From a virus (Duplodnaviria; Heunggongvirae; Uroviricota; Caudoviricetes), in IMG/VR virus record IMGVR_UViG_2563366980_000004: a stretch of 45,423 nt of DNA; one strand, written 5' to 3'. Below, piece after piece: positions 1,976 to 22,734 of this stretch. Below the pieces are notes generated by a model. The model was given only the letters and a program-made list of their open reading frames with translations, was not told the origin of the DNA and ran no database searches. The translations under genes and the position numbers were made by a program. Position 1 is the first letter of the stretch, and the number at the start of each line of letters is the position of its first letter.

Positions 1976-2971
1976 TCACTTTTGTTTTAGCTTTATAATT
2001 TCTGATATCATAGTTGTTAGCTTTGAATCGGAAAGATTCTGCAGTCTATCTTTCTCAATAGAAACTGTAGTTTGTCCCTTTTCTAATATGAAATTTCTTT
2101 CTGTTTTCATTAAAAGCATTGCCAACTCTTTTATCATGTCTTCGTTCTTGAATTCTTGAGCATATTTTAGAGACATGACTTTCATCTCAATATTTGTGAT
2201 TTCATTCTGAAAATATTTGATTTCGTCAAACCCATTTTTATAGAGGCGTAGAAAAAAATAAGCAAACAATTCAACGACTATTACAAATGATAATTTAGGA
2301 AGGTGATGAATAAAAAATCCCACCCCATCCACAATGTCTGGCGCGCTGTAAAGAAAGTAAGCAAGAGATAATATCCCTGTCAACGCAATTATTGTTCCGA
2401 TTGCAAGGTTAAGCCCACCTCGTCGATTGAGTCTGTCTATTTCAGACTCTAATCTTAGAACCATATCAGTATGGAGTTTATGTAAGCTGTAGCTCTTCTT
2501 AAAATCAGATATATCGCTTTTTAGGCTGTTATCTGCCAGAAGTATTGTGTTTCCAATTATTCTCTTTTTTGCATCGGATATTAACTTCTCCCTTTCACTC
2601 TCTGTTATTTCAATGGAAACTCCGGAAGATGTTCTATTTTCAATTTCGCTCAATTTTTTATTTAGCTTAACTATTTCTTTGTGAAAAATATATCTCGTGT
2701 TTTCAATATCTCTACCACCAATTCCTTTGTTTAAATAAGAAGTCATTATTGCGACAAAAGAACCAACAAAAACTAGGGCAGTTGCTGTAAATAAAATAAA
2801 CTCTTTCTTCTCGTTTATTAAATTTACTATTGATGATGATTCCAGTTGAATGTCTGAAAGCGAAGTTTTAAGCACAAAATTCATCACAGGTGAAACCATG
2901 ATTATGGCAACAACTATAATAAATCCATATTTTTTTATAATGTAAATAAGAAGGCCAAATAAATCTTTCAT
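1976..2971 (-). CDS. Hypothetical integral membrane protein with four predicted TM helices and coiled-coil segments (AT-rich moron)
   Basis: 338-aa ORF (TTG at 2992; first ATG at 2971); hydrophobic segments at roughly residues 15-37, 66-87, 195-217 and 232-250 separated by K/E-rich heptad-like regions; markedly AT-rich relative to flanking phage genes; no family recognised. Confidence 0.7.
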   Translation of the reverse strand: MKDLFGLLIYIIKKYGFIIVVAIIMVSPVMNFVLKTSLSDIQLESSSIVNLINEKKEFILFTATALVFVGSFVAIMTSYLNKGIGGRDIENTRYIFHKEIVKLNKKLSEIENRTSSGVSIEITESEREKLISDAKKRIIGNTILLADNSLKSDISDFKKSYSLHKLHTDMVLRLESEIDRLNRRGGLNLAIGTIIALTGILSLAYFLYSAPDIVDGVGFFIHHLPKLSFVIVVELFAYFFLRLYKNGFDEIKYFQNEITNIEMKVMSLKYAQEFKNEDMIKELAMLLMKTERNFILEKGQTTVSIEKDRLQNLSDSKLTTMISEIIKLKQK

Positions 2972-3344
2972 TTTATCTTTTACCTGAAACAAATTTTTAT
3001 TAAAGTAACTTAAAAAATGATTGATTGCAAGATTTACTATTGCTGTTCATTTTAAATTACTATACCCCCCTATGCATACATATAATCCCATAGGGGAGAA
3101 GTTTATTAGTTAGTTAAGTTGAAGGCTATACCTACAATCTAATTCCCCTCCAACCTAACATGCACAAGCGTCAACCTATCGGTAGTGATAATTTTATGAG
3201 GATACGTATAAACAAGATTCTGAGTTGCTCCTATTCATTAAGACAATACATTTTGTAACTTCTGCTTTTGGCTCAGGGTGGGGTGTGAGATTAGGTTTGG
3301 CTCTGTGCCATAGATGTGTCAGTTCACATCTGAGCTAATACACA

Positions 3345-3539
3345 TTACTCAATCACTCCAGCAAACCTATATATCTTGTGTGACGCCCATTTATTTGGGC
3401 ATGATTTAATATCAGGATCTGGAAAATCAGGCCTGTATTTCTGGCCAGTTCTCCGGTTTACGCTGTTCCAGCGAAGAACTGTCGATACTGAAACGCCACA
3501 GAAGTCGGCGACTTGTTTAGTTGTCATTAAGTTGTTCAT
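3345..3539 (-). CDS. AlpA/excisionase-like small DNA-binding protein
   Basis: 64 aa; TKQVADFCGVSVSTVLRW helix-turn-helix followed by an FPxP motif, as in AlpA/Xis-family proteins; sits at the head of the leftward operon facing int. Confidence 0.7.
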   Translation of the reverse strand: MNNLMTTKQVADFCGVSVSTVLRWNSVNRRTGQKYRPDFPDPDIKSCPNKWASHKIYRFAGVIE

Positions 3540-4333
3540 TACTTCACCTCCTGCGGCGGTTCCGGTAGCGGCATCCAGTGGGTTACTTTCGATGCCGGTT
3601 CTTCCACATCGTCAGTAACTGCCCACCATTTGTTTCTCGACCAATCGTAATACCCTTCGAAGGTATCGCACTCAGTCCAGCCGTAAGACTTCCCCCAACA
3701 CCAAACATACTGTTTATCGTTCGGCATTCGCTCACTACAGCTTATCCAACCATCCGGAGTTACCGGAGAGTTGCCCGATAGCGCATTACGCAATCGCTCC
3801 AGCTTCACGTATTCCTGAACCCTGTTTCCGTCGCATGCCTGAAGCCATTGCGCAGCCTTTTGCGCATCAGTGTGAAAGGCACAAGTGCGACCGTCATCAA
3901 ATTGCATTTCGTAGAGGTCAGCAACTTGTTCAAACTGCGTGTGTTGTGACTTGTAAGTTTGGCTTACAGGTTCGGCACCATGAAGCATGGCGGCGCGGCA
4001 GGCGTTCCAGCCATCAACATAATCAAACGTATTGCTATCGTCTGGCTCGATTTCATCTGGCACTATCAGCACCGGCTGGACGGTGACATTGGCAAAGGCA
4101 GCACGCAACCCGGTTTTAATTTCTTCGATTTCATCAGAGCCAAGCGATGAGTCAGAAAGCGCATGGTGGAATGCGTAAGCCATGTCGTCGTTTACTGCCA
4201 CCGGCTCTGCTTCCAGTGATGCCAGCGCGATAAGCGCCAGCTCACGAATTTCACCGCCGTCTATATCGTCAATGTCATCGCGGCCAGAAATGTTAGCCAG
4301 CCATTGCAGTCGCTCTTTGGAAATAGTGATCAT
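3539..4333 (-). CDS. Phage protein with C-terminal DUF551 domain
   Basis: 264 aa; C-terminal W-rich region ending VTHWMPLPEPP is characteristic of DUF551; N-terminal domain is paralogous to ORF 4697..5053. Confidence 0.8.
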   Translation of the reverse strand: MITISKERLQWLANISGRDDIDDIDGGEIRELALIALASLEAEPVAVNDDMAYAFHHALSDSSLGSDEIEEIKTGLRAAFANVTVQPVLIVPDEIEPDDSNTFDYVDGWNACRAAMLHGAEPVSQTYKSQHTQFEQVADLYEMQFDDGRTCAFHTDAQKAAQWLQACDGNRVQEYVKLERLRNALSGNSPVTPDGWISCSERMPNDKQYVWCWGKSYGWTECDTFEGYYDWSRNKWWAVTDDVEEPASKVTHWMPLPEPPQEVK

Positions 4334-4695
4334 GCCGTAGCCCCTTCTTGATATTTTTCAAACCAGAACACAACCGGGTCAGATTTCATTTCAACCAATC
4401 CCATACGAACCAGCGCCTTGCCTTTCCCGGACGCAAGGAATTCACGACGACCATCACTGATAATTCGCCGATAGTCTTCCAGGCTACTGCAATGCTTGTG
4501 CAGATTGCATGGGTGGCATGCCGGAACCATGTTGGATATATCGTCACGCTCCTGGTGAAGCATATTTCCATCAAAACGAATGACCGGTTTTACATGATCT
4601 GCATGCCACTTTTCGCCAAGTTCGCAGCCGCAATAAGCGCAGCGACCACCGAACTTCATGCGCAGTTCTGCACGTTGTTTTTTCGTCAGTGCCAT
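4330..4695 (-). CDS. HNH endonuclease
   Basis: Start taken at MALTKKQ; motifs GGRCAYCGCEL...WHADHVKP...CHPCN are a classic HNH zinc-finger nuclease signature; overlaps flanking genes by a few nt. Confidence 0.8.
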   Translation of the reverse strand: MALTKKQRAELRMKFGGRCAYCGCELGEKWHADHVKPVIRFDGNMLHQERDDISNMVPACHPCNLHKHCSSLEDYRRIISDGRREFLASGKGKALVRMGLVEMKSDPVVFWFEKYQEGATA

Positions 4696-4696
4696 A

Positions 4697-5053
4697 TCAC
4701 TCTCCTTTCCCCTGAAGCATGGCTTCGCGGCAATCGTTCCATCCTTCAGCATAATCACTATACGCAAGAGGCCAACCTCTTATGTATTCACGCGGCAACT
4801 TATCAGGCACTACCAGCGCTGGCGGCGCGGTGTAAAGCTGGTGCGTTCCATCTGGCAGCGAGTGACCTACATACTCACCGACCCCGTCAACACACATGCA
4901 CCCATCCTCAATAATGCATTCCGCTACAGGCTCTGCCTCCAGCGATGCCAGCGCAATTTCATAAGCACGGCGCTCAATATTGTCTCTAACGTCCAGGCTA
5001 CCGATTCGCTCTTTGATTTCTTTAATCAGTTCCTTATCGGTGAAAGTGGTCAT
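4697..5053 (-). CDS. Hypothetical phage protein (YfdT-like; paralog of the N-terminal domain of 3539..4333)
   Basis: 118 aa; shares IALASLEAEPVA and GWNxCRxAML motifs with the 264-aa DUF551 protein. Confidence 0.7.
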   Translation of the reverse strand: MTTFTDKELIKEIKERIGSLDVRDNIERRAYEIALASLEAEPVAECIIEDGCMCVDGVGEYVGHSLPDGTHQLYTAPPALVVPDKLPREYIRGWPLAYSDYAEGWNDCREAMLQGKGE

Positions 5054-5415
5054 TATGCCCCAGCCTCCGGTGCTTTTGGCATTACTGCCCAGTGAGTGAT
5101 ATTGACGTTTTCAAGGTCCCCGACCTGAAATGTCCACTGCCATTCTCCGGTTTCTTTTTGTCCCCAGGTGTACCAGAGAGAACGCCAGCCAATCAGCCAG
5201 CCTTCTCCGTTAATATCAAATAACAGAACACTTTCATTTGCTGGTGGAAGTTCAACTGACACTGGTATTACTTTGTTTTCCAGTGCCGCACATTTAGCTT
5301 CAAGCGCATCGAATTTACGTACCAGATACTCAGCATTTGTTTCATTCACTTTCAGATCTCGCGGTACACATTTCCCGCGAAGAAACCCTTCCATTTCGAA
5401 AACATTCATGCGCAT
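5053..5415 (-). CDS. Hypothetical phage protein with DUF551-like C-terminus (YfdS-like)
   Basis: 120 aa; W-rich C-terminus ending ITHWAVMPKAPE resembles DUF551. Confidence 0.7.
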   Translation of the reverse strand: MRMNVFEMEGFLRGKCVPRDLKVNETNAEYLVRKFDALEAKCAALENKVIPVSVELPPANESVLLFDINGEGWLIGWRSLWYTWGQKETGEWQWTFQVGDLENVNITHWAVMPKAPEAGA

Positions 5416-5942
5416 TTGCGTAACTCCGATAACTCGTTAAAACGTTCCATAAACATCCCATAGGCATGGCCTGGCGACAGTGGAATAACTTTGAACATCT
5501 CTGTTGCCGGGATACCTTCCAGTACAGGCCAGAAAGAGCCATCATCAAGCCCGAGATCGCGGCGTTCGGTTGCCAGCATGATGAGATCGGCATATTTCAC
5601 AGGCGTGCTCATAACCGGGGGTAACCCGTATTTCTCACGGATTACGGCGTCTATTTTTTCTTCCATCCGTTTATAGTCAGGAAGAAGGCGTTTCAGTGGC
5701 GCGGGGATGTCCTGGCAATACGCTTCTGTTGCATCATGCATTAACGCTTCAAAAGCAAATTCCTGCGGCACCAGCTGGCTGCAAAGCACCGCATGCTGGG
5801 CGACGCTGTAGAAGTGTGAAAGATGTCCTGCAAAGCGACAGATATTTGAAAGGGAAACCGCGATATCGTTAATCACGATGTCGTCTTTATTTATCCTGTC
5901 ATAATAAAAATGCTTCCCGGAAAAAGTTTTAATAAATGACAT
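5406..5942 (-). CDS. HD-domain phosphohydrolase (YfdR-like)
   Basis: Start taken at MSFIKT (ORF-track frame arithmetic); HD-type metal-binding residues (H...HD...D) in NICRFAGH...EALMHDATEAY. Confidence 0.8.
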   Translation of the reverse strand: MSFIKTFSGKHFYYDRINKDDIVINDIAVSLSNICRFAGHLSHFYSVAQHAVLCSQLVPQEFAFEALMHDATEAYCQDIPAPLKRLLPDYKRMEEKIDAVIREKYGLPPVMSTPVKYADLIMLATERRDLGLDDGSFWPVLEGIPATEMFKVIPLSPGHAYGMFMERFNELSELRKCA

Positions 5943-6069
5943 TTTGTTCTCCACGTATATGTGCTGCACCACGCTGAATTCTGGTAAAAGGAAGCCCTCA
6001 CCATCCGGTGATTATTGAGTTAATTACGTTTCCATAAATGCCCCCGCAGGGGCATTTGCAGTAATGAAA

Positions 6070-6894
6070 TCAGGCGGTGAAAGTACCAATAAAGGTTTCT
6101 ACTTTGCTGTCCTTGAATTTCTCAACAAGCAGATCACGAAATTCGTTAGCCATTTCCTCCTGCACTGCTTCCAGCTGAATAATGCGCAGAACCAGTACAG
6201 GACGATCGCCAGTGAGAATGCTGAGGCGTAATTTAAACGGACGTTCTTTCAGGCCTTCAAACGGAACGCATTTAAATTCAAATGCCACTGGCATAATGTC
6301 TTTGGTTTTCGCTTCGACAGACTCCATCAGGGAGCGTTTGCCGCTGAAGTCATTGTCTTCAAAATCAGCGGTCTGGTTTGCTTCAATCGTGATTTTACGG
6401 ACTGCCGCAGCTGCTTTTGTTGCCTGAATAGCGTCACCATTAGCATCAAAGCCCACAAGGTAGTCGGCCCAGTCTTCAATCCATTCTGCCAGTGACTTCT
6501 GGGAGTTACGCTCGCCATTAACAGACAACAGAGCAGAGAACGGTGCTGTCTTTTTCAGTTTGAGAGTGGCGGTGTTATCTGCGTGACCTGGTTCATCAAT
6601 AGTACCCAGATTAAGCACACTGACAGCACGCATATTATCAGCATCGATAAAGCAGCGGGTGCCTTCATCTGCAAGATCTTTAGAATAACGGGTAAAGTCA
6701 TCGATGCTGGCAGTGGAAAGCGCACCACGGAAACGGAAGCGATTTAAATTAAATTTTTCCAGATCATGAATGCGGAAATTCTCAGGCAATGCCACAGCAT
6801 CGGCACCAATCTTACTGATAATTTCATTAACACCCTGAGCAGAAATAAGGGCATGGATTTGATTAATTGCGGTTGCGTCTAAGTTCTGAGACAT
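6070..6894 (-). CDS. DUF2303 family phage protein (YfdQ-like)
   Basis: 274 aa, same length and general sequence character as E. coli prophage YfdQ; conserved early-left position. Confidence 0.75.
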
Positions 6895-20140: not shown

Positions 20141-20632
20141 ATGGATCATGAGTTGAAAAAACTGGTGCTGAATATTAATCAACTGGCGGCTTTATCTGGT
20201 CTGCACCGCCAGACTGTCGTGGCAAGACTGAAAAACATTCGTCCCGCTGGTGGACATGACAAACTCAAGCTATACCGGTTGACCGATATTCTGACTGAAT
20301 TTATGGGGTTACCACCGCCGGTTGCTGAGGGCGAAATGGATCCACATGAACGCAAAGCCTGGTATCAGTCTGAACGTGAGCGTCTTAAGTTCGAACAGGA
20401 AACGGCACAACTCATTCCGGCCAGTGATGTCAGACGGGAGTTTGCCATCTGGGCAAAAGCGGTCGTGCAGGTGCTGGAGACATTACCGGATATTCTGGAA
20501 CGTGACTGTGGTCTGCAGCCTGCCGCTGTGAGCCGTGTTCAGTCCATTATTGATGATCTGCGCGATCAGATAGCCCTGCGGGTGACCGAAGCAGGTGCGG
20601 ATGATGAGGAGGAATTACAGCAGGAGGAGTAA
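20141..20632 (+). CDS. Terminase small subunit (Nu1-like, N-terminal HTH)
   Basis: 163 aa; N-terminal HTH (LNINQLAALSGLHRQTVVARL); acidic C-terminus; first gene after cos. Confidence 0.75.
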   Translation: MDHELKKLVLNINQLAALSGLHRQTVVARLKNIRPAGGHDKLKLYRLTDILTEFMGLPPPVAEGEMDPHERKAWYQSERERLKFEQETAQLIPASDVRREFAIWAKAVVQVLETLPDILERDCGLQPAAVSRVQSIIDDLRDQIALRVTEAGADDEEELQQEE

Positions 20633-22734
20633 TGCTGAATCAGGAAACCGCAAAGGCAGCACGAACCGATTCAGGTTATATCCTTCGCGCACCGAGACGA
20701 ATGCGGGTTGCTGATGCCGTTGCTCAGTATATGCGGGTGCCCATGGGGGCAGGGAACTCAGTCCCGTGGGATCCGCTGGTGGCACCGTATGTTATTGAGC
20801 CGATGAACTGCCTGGCCTCGCGTGAATACGACGCAGTGATATTTGTTGGCCCGGCACGAACCGGCAAGACTATCGGCCTGATTGACGGCTGGGTGATTTA
20901 CAACGTGATTTGCGATCCTGCGGATATGCTGATCATTCAGATGACGGAGGAAAAAGCCCGCGAACACTCCAAAAAACGACTCGCCAGAACGTTTCGCGTC
21001 AGCCCGGAAGTGGTCAGTCGCCTGAGTCCGAACAAAAATGACAACAACGTTTATGACAGAACATTCCTTGCTGGCAACTACCTGAAAATCGGCTGGCCGT
21101 CAGTCAATATCATGTCCTCATCAGATTATAAATGCGTGGCGCTGACGGATTATGACCGTTTTCCGGAAGATATTGATGGCGAGGGGGATGCCTTCTCTCT
21201 TGCCTCAAAACGTACCACCACATTTATGTCCAGTGGTATGACGCTGGTGGAGAGTTCCCCCGGCAGGGATGTGAAGGATGTGAAATGGCGACGGACTTCA
21301 CCGCATGAGGCTCCACCAACCACGGGGATACTGTCGCTCTATAACCGTGGCGATCGCCGTCGCTGGTACTGGCCCTGTCCACACTGTGGTGAGTATTTTC
21401 AGCCCTGCGGCGATGTGGTTGCTGGTTTCCGTGATATTGCCGATCCCGTGCTGGCAAGTGAGGCGGCTTATATTCAGTGTCCTTCCTGTTCAGGACGGAT
21501 TATGCCTGAACAAAAACGCGAGCTGAACGGACGTGGGGTCTGGTTGCGGGATGGTGAATCCATCAATGCGGATGGCAGTCGTTATGGTGATCCCCGACGC
21601 TCACGTATTGCGTCATTCTGGATGGAGGGTCCGGCAGCTGCTTACCAGACACTCTCGCAACTCGTTTACAAACTGCTTACTGCAGAACAGGAATACGAGA
21701 CAACCGGAAGTGAAGAAACACTCAAGACGGTTATCAATACCGACTGGGGATTACCTTATCTTCCCCGTGCCAGCATGGAGCAACGAAAAAGTGAACTGCT
21801 TGAGCAGCGGGCAGAGCCAGTTCCTTCCCGCAGTGTGCCGGATGGCGTTAATTTCCTTGTGGCGACAGTGGATGTGCAGGCGGGACGTCATCGCCGTTTT
21901 GTGGTTCAGGTAACGGGCTATGGCAGCCGTGGCGAACGCTGGATTATTGATCGTTACAACATCACGCAGTCATTGCGCGGTGACAGCGACGGGGAGAGCC
22001 AGCGAATTGATCCGGCCAGCTATCCGGAAGACTGGGATGTCCTGCTGACGGATGTTTTTCATAAAAGCTGGCCGCTGGCCTCCGATCCTTCTCAACAAAT
22101 GCGACTGATGGCAATGGCGGTGGACTCCGGCGGTGAAGACGGGGTCACTGATAATGCCTATAAATTCTGGCGTCGTTGCCGTCGTGATGGCCTTGGTAAA
22201 CGTATTTACCTGTTTAAGGGCGACAGCATCCGGCGCGCAAAACTGATCACCCGTACATTCCCTGATAACACCGGACGAACAGGCCGACGGGCGCAGGCCG
22301 CAGGTGATGTGCCGCTCTGGCTTCTTCAGACGGATGCCCTGAAAGACCGGGTGAATAACGCGTTATGGCGTGACTCTCCAGGTCCCGGCTATGTGCATTT
22401 CCCTGACTGGCTGGGGAGCTGGTTTTACGACGAACTGACGTATGAAGAGCGGAGTAGTGACGGGAAATGGAGTAAGCCGGGTCGCGGTGCCAACGAAGCT
22501 TTTGACCTGATGGTGTATGCCGAGGCTCTGGTCATTCTGCATGGATACGAAAAGATCCGCTGGCCGGATGCACCGGGGTGGGCGAGCCGGGAAACCTGGC
22601 TGGAGTGTGTCCCGGACAGTACCGAACCGTCACCCTCACCGGAACCGGTATCCACGCCTGTTAAAAAACAAAAACGGAAGAAAACAGTAACTGACGATGT
22701 TAACCCCTGGCTGACTTCCGGAGGATGGTTATGA
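20632..22734 (+). CDS. Terminase large subunit (GpA-like)
   Basis: 700 aa; Walker A (VGPARTGKT), large N-terminal ATPase and C-terminal nuclease regions. Confidence 0.9.
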   Translation: MLNQETAKAARTDSGYILRAPRRMRVADAVAQYMRVPMGAGNSVPWDPLVAPYVIEPMNCLASREYDAVIFVGPARTGKTIGLIDGWVIYNVICDPADMLIIQMTEEKAREHSKKRLARTFRVSPEVVSRLSPNKNDNNVYDRTFLAGNYLKIGWPSVNIMSSSDYKCVALTDYDRFPEDIDGEGDAFSLASKRTTTFMSSGMTLVESSPGRDVKDVKWRRTSPHEAPPTTGILSLYNRGDRRRWYWPCPHCGEYFQPCGDVVAGFRDIADPVLASEAAYIQCPSCSGRIMPEQKRELNGRGVWLRDGESINADGSRYGDPRRSRIASFWMEGPAAAYQTLSQLVYKLLTAEQEYETTGSEETLKTVINTDWGLPYLPRASMEQRKSELLEQRAEPVPSRSVPDGVNFLVATVDVQAGRHRRFVVQVTGYGSRGERWIIDRYNITQSLRGDSDGESQRIDPASYPEDWDVLLTDVFHKSWPLASDPSQQMRLMAMAVDSGGEDGVTDNAYKFWRRCRRDGLGKRIYLFKGDSIRRAKLITRTFPDNTGRTGRRAQAAGDVPLWLLQTDALKDRVNNALWRDSPGPGYVHFPDWLGSWFYDELTYEERSSDGKWSKPGRGANEAFDLMVYAEALVILHGYEKIRWPDAPGWASRETWLECVPDSTEPSPSPEPVSTPVKKQKRKKTVTDDVNPWLTSGGWL

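Follow-up and report, generated by a model that had tools for sequence, protein, structure and literature searches.

The virus record IMGVR_UViG_2563366980_000004 (IMG/VR; 45,423 nucleotides (nt), the whole of which is referred to here as the window) is a complete lambda-like (lambdoid) prophage of Escherichia coli UTI89, in which a gene for a small HNH endonuclease lies between two genes that encode related N-terminal modules (N-modules). Judged from sequence comparisons, the best-supported account of this arrangement is ordinary lambdoid mosaicism acting at sub-gene resolution, together with a free-standing HNH module. A history of mosaic recombination for the region appears highly probable from the breakpoints set out below. 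The fuller explanation, in which mosaic replacement and a circulating HNH cassette are joined to a nuclease of the homing type, we would give only slightly better than even chances. All four open reading frames (ORFs) singled out in a first-pass annotation of the window are present where that annotation had placed them, on the minus strand, and the features on which the argument turns are these:

4697-5053, minus strand: gene for a 118-amino-acid (aa) protein consisting of an N-module only, at the yfdT position (phrog_5117)
4330-4695, minus strand: HNH endonuclease gene, 121 aa (Pfam HNH)
3539-4333, minus strand: gene for a 264-aa protein with an N-module (residues 1 to about 120), a spacer module (about 130-185) and a DUF551 domain (195-261) (Pfam, phrog_60)
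4923-4957, minus strand: LASLEAEPVA box of the 118-aa gene; the upstream breakpoint lies just 3' of it
4197-4231, minus strand: LASLEAEPVA box of the 264-aa gene; cassette boundaries of a second class fall here on the downstream side
3978-4025, minus strand: GWNACRAAML box of the 264-aa gene; here lies the downstream breakpoint when the window is compared with the single-gene allele
4312-4708, minus strand: HNH cassette as delimited by the ends of homology; it takes in the ORF, about 12 nt on its upstream side (the preceding gene's last codons and the ribosome-binding site) and some 18 nt from the beginning of the downstream gene

The complete arrangement is found in 17 of 5426 complete E. coli genomes, and 4047 match parts of the region. 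In phage cdtI and in strain STE15 a single gene, encoding 206 and 259 aa respectively, occupies the interval between yfdS and the excisionase gene, and the 259-aa form is common, its protein clusters occurring on hundreds of contigs. The 5' end of this single gene, through the LASLEAEPVA box, resembles the 5' end of the 118-aa gene in the window, the homology running from 6100 down to 4913 for STE15 and to 4922 for cdtI. Likewise, its 3' end, from GWNACRAAML onwards, resembles the 3' part of the 264-aa gene, with homology at 3257-4022 (93%) for STE15 and at 3949-4019 for cdtI. Relative to the single-gene allele the window thus carries an 890-bp (base-pair) replacement at 4023-4912, whose junctions are the GWNACR box and a point just 3' of the LASLEAEPVA box. 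It is proposed that this 890-bp patchwork took the place, in the UTI89 lineage, of about 155 bp of the single yfdT-position gene, which in most related prophages comprises an N-module, an optional spacer and a DUF551 domain (206 or 259 aa). The exchange would have occurred via two motifs conserved throughout the family, the LASLEAEPVA box upstream and the GWNxCRxAML box downstream, to yield three coupled genes, encoding respectively the 118-aa N-module-only protein, the 121-aa HNH protein, and the 264-aa protein, a second N-module plus DUF551 protein whose gene is of different ancestry. The locus is a clear sub-gene example of lambdoid mosaicism, with the two boxes and the MTTxT gene start as exchange points and an intact HNH cassette, under selection, riding between the exchange boxes.

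The first-pass annotation had read the same genes as a duplication of one gene comprising an N-domain and DUF551, with the HNH gene inserted at the junction and the two modules of the second copy split apart into separate short genes. The protein similarities on which it drew are real. The division of the 264-aa protein into N-domain and DUF551 is borne out by a match to Pfam DUF551 (PF04448) at residues 195-261 (60.8 bits, against a cut-off of 22 bits; profile positions 1-68 of 68), and the protein as a whole matches phrog_60 (E=4.5e-56). BLASTP shows homology between the 118-aa protein and residues 4-119 of the 264-aa protein (E=7e-11, 31% identity), the two having in common an identical 12-mer, IALASLEAEPVA, and a second motif, GWNxCRxAML, that reads GWNDCREAML in the one and GWNACRAAML in the other. 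The alignment of the two sides of the HNH gene, significant for the N-modules as proteins, does not carry over to the DNA, where the 118-aa and 264-aa genes are linked only by two direct repeats that are the two protein boxes themselves: D2 (4923-4957 versus 4197-4231, the LASLEAEPVA boxes; 35 nt, 86%) and D1 (4710-4757 versus 3978-4025, the GWNxCR boxes; 48 nt, 83%).

The two N-modules of the window are 31-35% identical to one another and, segment by segment, 65-96% identical to genes of other prophages. The whole 118-aa protein shows 74% identity to the product of a 118-aa gene in O157:H7 and 65% to that of a gene in RM8082, while its residues 1-42 are 86% identical to K-12 YfdT. The N-terminal half of the 264-aa protein matches the product of a 221-aa gene at 96% (residues 1-46) and 84% (residues 34-119), and residues 44-120 are 91% identical to the product of a gene in strain A19. 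Each N-module is closer to genes elsewhere than to the other, which argues that no duplication took place in situ; on these comparisons the two are diverged members of one family that have been joined by recombination. Because K-12 YfdT and the 118-aa protein share their first 42 residues, the 118-aa gene is taken to be the local allele at the yfdT position.

Nor does the 118-aa gene look like half of a split gene, since its product belongs to phrog_5117 at full length (residues 1-117 on profile positions 1-125 of 125; E=4e-50), with no match to a Pfam or NCBIfam family. Prophage relatives that lack the HNH gene already possess yfdS (about 95% DNA identity), upstream of the N-module gene, together with a single hybrid gene, which contradicts both duplication and splitting. 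The order of genes had also been given wrongly: the locus is transcribed from the minus strand as 120-aa, 118-aa, HNH and 264-aa genes, so that the two short genes run DUF551-like and then N-module, the reverse of the module order in the 264-aa protein. A local tandem duplication of an N-module plus DUF551 gene, with HNH at the junction and later divergence and splitting, might be suggested by the presence of N-modules on both sides of HNH and of a DUF551-like gene nearby, and homing endonucleases can indeed drive segmental amplification (PMC13096335). It is nevertheless very unlikely, given paralogues so much closer (up to 96%) to genes elsewhere than to one another, DNA similarity confined to boxes of 35 and 48 nt, a yfdS gene that pre-exists in HNH-less relatives and on the wrong side, and a 118-aa protein that is complete for its family. 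The splitting of one gene by insertion of the nuclease was likewise rejected, as both flanks hold a complete N-module with LASLEAEPVA and GWNxCR boxes.

The LASLEAEPVA box varies at 10 of its 12 third-codon positions (13 DNA variants), so it appears to be conserved mainly as protein and not as a fixed DNA site. Its role as a strictly conserved DNA site was rejected on the same ground; a degenerate nuclease site would be compatible with the variation. In O157:H7 (locus L127, 1629-2344) a 118-aa N-module gene is followed directly by a separate 120-aa DUF551 gene without any HNH gene, and the DUF551 domain there is nearly identical to that of the 264-aa protein of the window. The occurrence of N-module and DUF551 genes side by side without HNH implies that fusion and fission of these modules is general in the family. 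The exact 264-aa protein is present in NCBI, named 'DUF551 domain-containing protein'. Its AlphaFold2 model is poor for a fold search (mean predicted local distance difference test score (pLDDT) 46), the DUF551 strands alone reaching about 70-86, and searches of PDB sequences with the 264-aa and 120-aa proteins gave no significant match.

The 120-aa protein encoded upstream is 98% identical to K-12 YfdS, and its gene is retained in HNH-less relatives; on this evidence yfdS is a conserved neighbour lying outside the rearrangement. The DUF551-like C-terminus previously ascribed to it is only partly upheld. The C-terminus of YfdS and the 264-aa protein both match phrog_6925 and phrog_924, and hhalign aligns the two proteins over the expected regions (E=0.019); however, the Pfam DUF551 score is marginal, at 19.9 bits lying under the cut-off, and BLASTP gives no significant match between YfdS and the 264-aa protein (E=0.63). 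YfdS has been counted as a DUF551 protein in earlier work (PMC4776307, PMC10834534). In K-12, multicopy suppression of over-initiation by DnaA needs either yfdS or yfdT, plus yfdQ and yfdR (PMC4776307), and the experimental ties of the YfdT/DUF551 family are confined to such overexpression phenotypes, in DnaA-dependent initiation (PMC4776307). The fusion and fission of N-module and DUF551 fits a shared function of this kind, YfdT sharing the N-module and YfdS being DUF551-like.

The identification of an HNH endonuclease gene among these ORFs holds: the 121-aa protein scores 28.1 bits against Pfam HNH (PF01844; cut-off 21.4 bits) and matches phrog_2118 (E=5e-57). Its true start is the ATG at 4695, and not the TTG of a longer 145-aa ORF. 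The protein has the features of the HNH superfamily, namely a beta-beta-alpha-metal fold, catalytic His/Asp-His and Asn residues, and two CxxC pairs of zinc ligands, and the residues C19, C22, H31, D33, H34, N55, C60, C63 and N64 are invariant in 38 homologues down to about 48% identity. AlphaFold models the protein with confidence (pLDDT 91). Among full-length copies 81 are intact and two contain insertions or deletions, and the median pairwise ratio of non-synonymous to synonymous substitution rates (dN/dS) over 43 intact alleles is 0.06, from which the gene is judged to be under strong purifying selection. Taken with the model, these data indicate that it probably encodes a functional, active-looking nuclease stabilised by zinc. 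In NCBIfam the only HNH matches were sub-threshold ones to IscB and retron families, and membership of a defence system was rejected, as only generic partial matches of the HNH motif to PtuB and PDC-M01B were obtained. The 5' third of the gene (4334-4445, about 110 nt) has 75-85% DNA identity to HNH genes of Klebsiella, Edwardsiella, Caulobacter and Acinetobacter phages, an unusually high conservation across such distant hosts, and the middle of the gene is without that similarity.

The first-pass annotation had likened the gene to free-standing homing endonucleases, and its free-standing character is well founded. A search of 3000-6000 with Rfam revealed no intron or other RNA family, and an intron-encoded origin was rejected since neither an RNA family nor a tRNA was found nearby; furthermore the gene is sporadic in distribution and occurs in many contexts. 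Intact copies, 97-100% identical, are present in 386 of the 5426 E. coli genomes (about 7%). The contexts include the Shiga toxin (Stx) phage ArgO145, Rac/Qin-like prophages beside hokD, and a ParB/STY4528 genomic island, and on 80 viral contigs at least six types of gene are found upstream of HNH and at least seven downstream. Homology on the upstream side ends at 4707-4709 in 75 of 90 loci, about 12 nt before the ATG, which brings in the ribosome-binding site as well as the final codons (KGE/KGD/KES) of whichever gene precedes. On the downstream side it ends at 4306, 4312 or 4317 in 54 of the 90 loci, and at the LASLEAEPVA box (4197) in a further 20. The same limits are seen in E. coli genomes. 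From these data the HNH gene is a self-contained cassette that circulates among lambdoid prophages of enterobacteria, and in one genomic island or more, apparently by recombining at gene junctions.

Traces of its loss are also widespread, in that about 330 genomes retain only the last 55 bp of HNH. In one such locus (L006, 2497-2664) a 55-aa ORF joins the 5' end of an N-module (...IALASLEAEPV) to the last 13 HNH codons (VFWFEKYQEGATA*), and in another (L007, 2533-2667) a pseudogene of 44 codons carries that junction too, which looks like the footprint of a deletion within an N-module-HNH pair. Strain RM8082 carries an N-module/HNH/N-module trio (L128, 1641-2884) in a non-phage genomic island with ParB and a replication protein of the STY4528 family. 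This trio appears to be decaying, for HNH has HAYH in place of HADH and a frameshift interrupts the downstream gene. In Shigella sonnei a 194-aa protein (P0002) consists of DUF4014 (PF13198) fused to HNH, presumably because the stop codon that separates the cassette from its commonest upstream gene was lost.

A gene encoding an N-module directly follows the cassette much more frequently than would be expected by chance. This was so in 59 of 74 viral loci, compared with eight of 583 other same-strand ORFs (Fisher p=1e-60). With one genome taken per species the counts are four of 17 versus none of 125 (Fisher p=1.5e-4), or five of 18 (p=2e-5) on inclusion of locus L107, where the N-module gene was found and the HNH gene was missed by the script. 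Both comparisons relied on a hidden Markov model of the N-module that had itself been built from downstream genes, and they draw on loci that are for the most part not independent of one another; this weighs against a homing-type reading. The adjacency persists for HNH proteins that are 47-52% identical to that of the window, in Huaxiibacter and Edwardsiella, and looser variants of the N-module lie downstream of HNH in Shimwellia and Buttiauxella. At about 13 of 21 species-level loci the neighbours are unrelated, for example NinG-like, RusA and methyltransferase genes. Such an association fits a homing-type nuclease attached to a site, without proving one. It is the one feature of the locus that seems worth an experiment, since it could mean homing to a hyper-variable gene family, or the stimulation of recombination there.

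We therefore consider it possible, if tentatively, that the HNH protein is a free-standing nuclease of the homing type, selfish or semi-selfish, although here we infer nuclease activity, target and homing alike. It would make double-strand breaks or nicks in the DNA of a co-resident phage lacking HNH, and repair from the HNH-bearing copy would bring into new phages the cassette along with more or less of the neighbouring N-module gene. Homing is plausible because the cassette is sporadic, occurs in many contexts and yet stays beside one gene family. The nuclease ORF is moreover intergenic, with the stop codon of one neighbour and the start codon of the other as its limits, in line with a free-standing homing gene; and phage HNH homing endonucleases have been reported to cluster by insertion site (PMC12724721). 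If site-associated homing is true, a temperate, lambda-like coliphage would prove to harbour a nuclease of this sort in its early operon, and the hyper-variability of the YfdT/DUF551 family would have a mechanism.

Several observations weigh against homing. An empty site was not found in the commonest context, between a DUF4014 gene and a 114-aa gene, where a synthetic query matched only in two pieces, and every genome holds either HNH or an alternative cassette at that place. The window's own relatives likewise have the hybrid single gene and not a plain absence of HNH. Across the 90 loci the boundaries of the cassette are sharp and fall into few classes, with none of the graded co-conversion tracts expected of repeated homing. 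Beyond a minimal HNH core and two helices, no extra DNA-binding domain that might confer site specificity is recognisable in the protein. The gene has the same guanine-plus-cytosine (GC) content as its flanks and has no promoter-like site of its own. All these features of the cassette would be compatible, too, with an accessory gene that is not selfish and is shuffled in the way of lambdoid modules generally, and it is the lack of an empty site, the step-like boundaries and the missing specificity domain that make such a gene a serious rival to homing.

As a plain accessory module the nuclease would benefit the phage, by processing intermediates of recombination or replication or by attacking the DNA of the host or of competitors during lytic growth. 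On the whole we regard this as unlikely, though far from negligible. The strong purifying selection would be accounted for, as would the tight translational coupling of the gene within an early operon without a promoter of its own, and the absence of an empty site together with the sharp gene-junction boundaries would be no different from those of any lambdoid mosaic module. Distant members of the HNH family do lie in nin-type regions beside NinG-like, RusA and methyltransferase genes, and there is weak similarity of HNH to endonuclease VII PHROGs and to NinG. Adjacency to the N-module would in this case be due to common descent and to conserved gene starts and ends that channel recombination, a component to which the same rather low probability attaches; enrichment downstream of proteins with only 47-52% HNH identity is poorly explained by descent alone. 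The restriction to about 7% of E. coli genomes and the frequent deletion remnants suggest that the gene is dispensable, and the phage already encodes RusA.

A more specific connection between nuclease and N-module can be envisaged in two ways. In the first, the HNH family would act specifically on the junction at the 5' end of N-module (YfdT-like) genes, homing to it or nicking there, and so driving the sub-genic shuffling of N-module and DUF551. A recombination-promoting nuclease may then be coupled to fast-evolving early phage proteins whose modules are found both fused and separate. This would be loosely comparable to the SegB-driven amplification of anti-defence genes in T-even phages (PMC13096335), and we think it improbable. 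In the second, the HNH protein and the N-module protein encoded downstream would form a functional pair, the latter acting as inhibitor or immunity protein or as targeting adaptor, in the manner of colicin DNase-immunity pairs. The ATGA overlap between HNH and N-module genes is conserved, with a gap of -3 at nearly all loci that have an N-module neighbour; the positional enrichment is strong; and the N-module is predicted to be helical. On the other hand, most N-module genes have no HNH (the region is matched in 4047 genomes and HNH is present in 386), some 13 of the 21 species-level loci have no N-module neighbour, and the downstream N-termini fall into at least seven very different sequence classes. 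Beyond the generic HNH motif no match to a defence or toxin-immunity family was found, and a pair of this kind appears decidedly unlikely.

HNH proteins of the HK97 gp74 type are associated with terminase, and a packaging role was therefore weighed and rejected on grounds of position and dispensability. Some 16 kb separate the gene, which belongs to an early operon, from the terminase genes (20141-22734) on the opposite strand; the phage has terminase and portal genes of the lambda type, and most close relatives of the prophage are without an HNH gene. Lambda packaging is not known to need an HNH protein. The probability of such a role is accordingly minimal.

Mosaicism with a free-standing HNH module places the locus among known phenomena, of which it is a further instance: the free-standing phage HNH gene on the one hand and lambdoid module exchange on the other. 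In Aeromonas phage Aeh1 the nrdA gene is split by the homing endonuclease gene mobE, and there too a nuclease ORF lies between two ORFs of one gene family; in UTI89, however, the flanks are not complementary halves, each having a complete N-module, with about 31% identity between them. Free-standing phage homing genes such as the seg and mob genes of T4 and the I-HmuI-like HNH genes of Skunavirus (PMC2988022, PMC12724721) share with the UTI89 locus a small intergenic nuclease ORF, sporadic presence, recurrence beside one gene family and mosaic flanks. The UTI89 locus differs from them in that an empty-site allele and graded co-conversion tracts were not found; its HNH protein, a putative nuclease, has no accessory DNA-binding domain and is encoded in a temperate lambdoid operon.

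A parallel to the flanking genes is provided by the mosaic genes of the lambdoid exo-xis or ea region, such as the variants of Ea22 (PMC10834534), in which N-terminal segments are likewise joined to interchangeable C-terminal domains that include DUF551. These genes occupy the same place between early recombination genes and xis, and show the same intragenic shuffling. The N-module (MTTxT...LASLEAEPVA...GWNxCRxAML; phrog_5117 and phrog_60) lacks the coiled-coil signature of Ea22, though, and the HNH cassette is an addition. The cluster of yfdQ-yfdR-yfdS-yfdT in the cryptic K-12 prophage CPS-53 (PMC4776307) has the same order as in UTI89, but there a single 101-aa YfdT is followed by torI, with neither HNH nor a second N-module plus DUF551 gene. 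Literature searches for an HNH gene in the exo-xis region, or for homing in lambdoid phages, found none described. Public databases already contain all four proteins, with generic names.

The stretch from 3300 to 6000 in the window is 100% identical to positions 4990325-4993025 of NC_007946.1, and RefSeq lists for the UTI89 prophage the integrase, early-left, repressor, replication, nin and lysis genes, with terminase, head and tail genes of the lambda type. Around the rearrangement the remaining genes are as follows:

6070-6894, minus strand: yfdQ (UTI89 annotation)
5406-5942, minus strand: yfdR (UTI89 annotation)
5053-5415, minus strand: yfdS, 120 aa, with a coiled N-terminus and a distant DUF551-like C-terminus (phrog_583, full length)
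3345-3539, minus strand: excisionase gene, 64 aa, the last gene of the operon before the cargo next to int (phrog_1553, E=4e-36)

Transcription runs in the order yfdP, yfdQ, yfdR, yfdS, the 118-aa gene, HNH, the 264-aa gene and the excisionase gene. The CPS-53-type order of yfdP, yfdQ, yfdR and yfdS, a variable gene at the yfdT position, and excisionase is conserved between UTI89 and K-12. Adjoining genes overlap (ATGA or TAATG) or sit 1 nt apart: the start of the 118-aa gene overlaps the stop of yfdS (ATGA), a single nucleotide separates its own stop codon from the HNH gene, the HNH stop overlaps the start of the 264-aa gene (ATGA), and the stop of the 264-aa gene overlaps the excisionase start. 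A promoter scan near HNH found no promoter-like site on the minus strand. These overlaps and 1-nt gaps, with the promoterless surroundings of HNH, imply that the genes make up one translationally coupled early operon, and of the early-left operon, yfdP-yfdQ-yfdR-yfdS-yfdT-xis, the region takes up the distal end.

The comparison corrects the RefSeq annotation of UTI89 in two respects. The 264-aa ORF, listed there only as a pseudogene fragment at 3539-3778 with 'missing N-terminus', is intact; and the 64-aa excisionase gene, for which RefSeq has no annotation in UTI89, is added, its ORF being intact and its exact or near-exact counterparts annotated elsewhere, as in phage cdtI, where the counterpart bears that name. 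Between the integrase and excisionase genes lies a 338-aa ORF (1976-2992, minus strand) of 30-33% GC, against about 50% in its neighbours. It is a member of phrog_5157 (function unknown), and PADLOC gives no more than a weak match to '2TM effector'. The same slot is occupied by an AIPR-family gene in STE15 and by a 710-aa ORF in phage cdtI, and it looks like a hotspot for variable cargo or defence genes.

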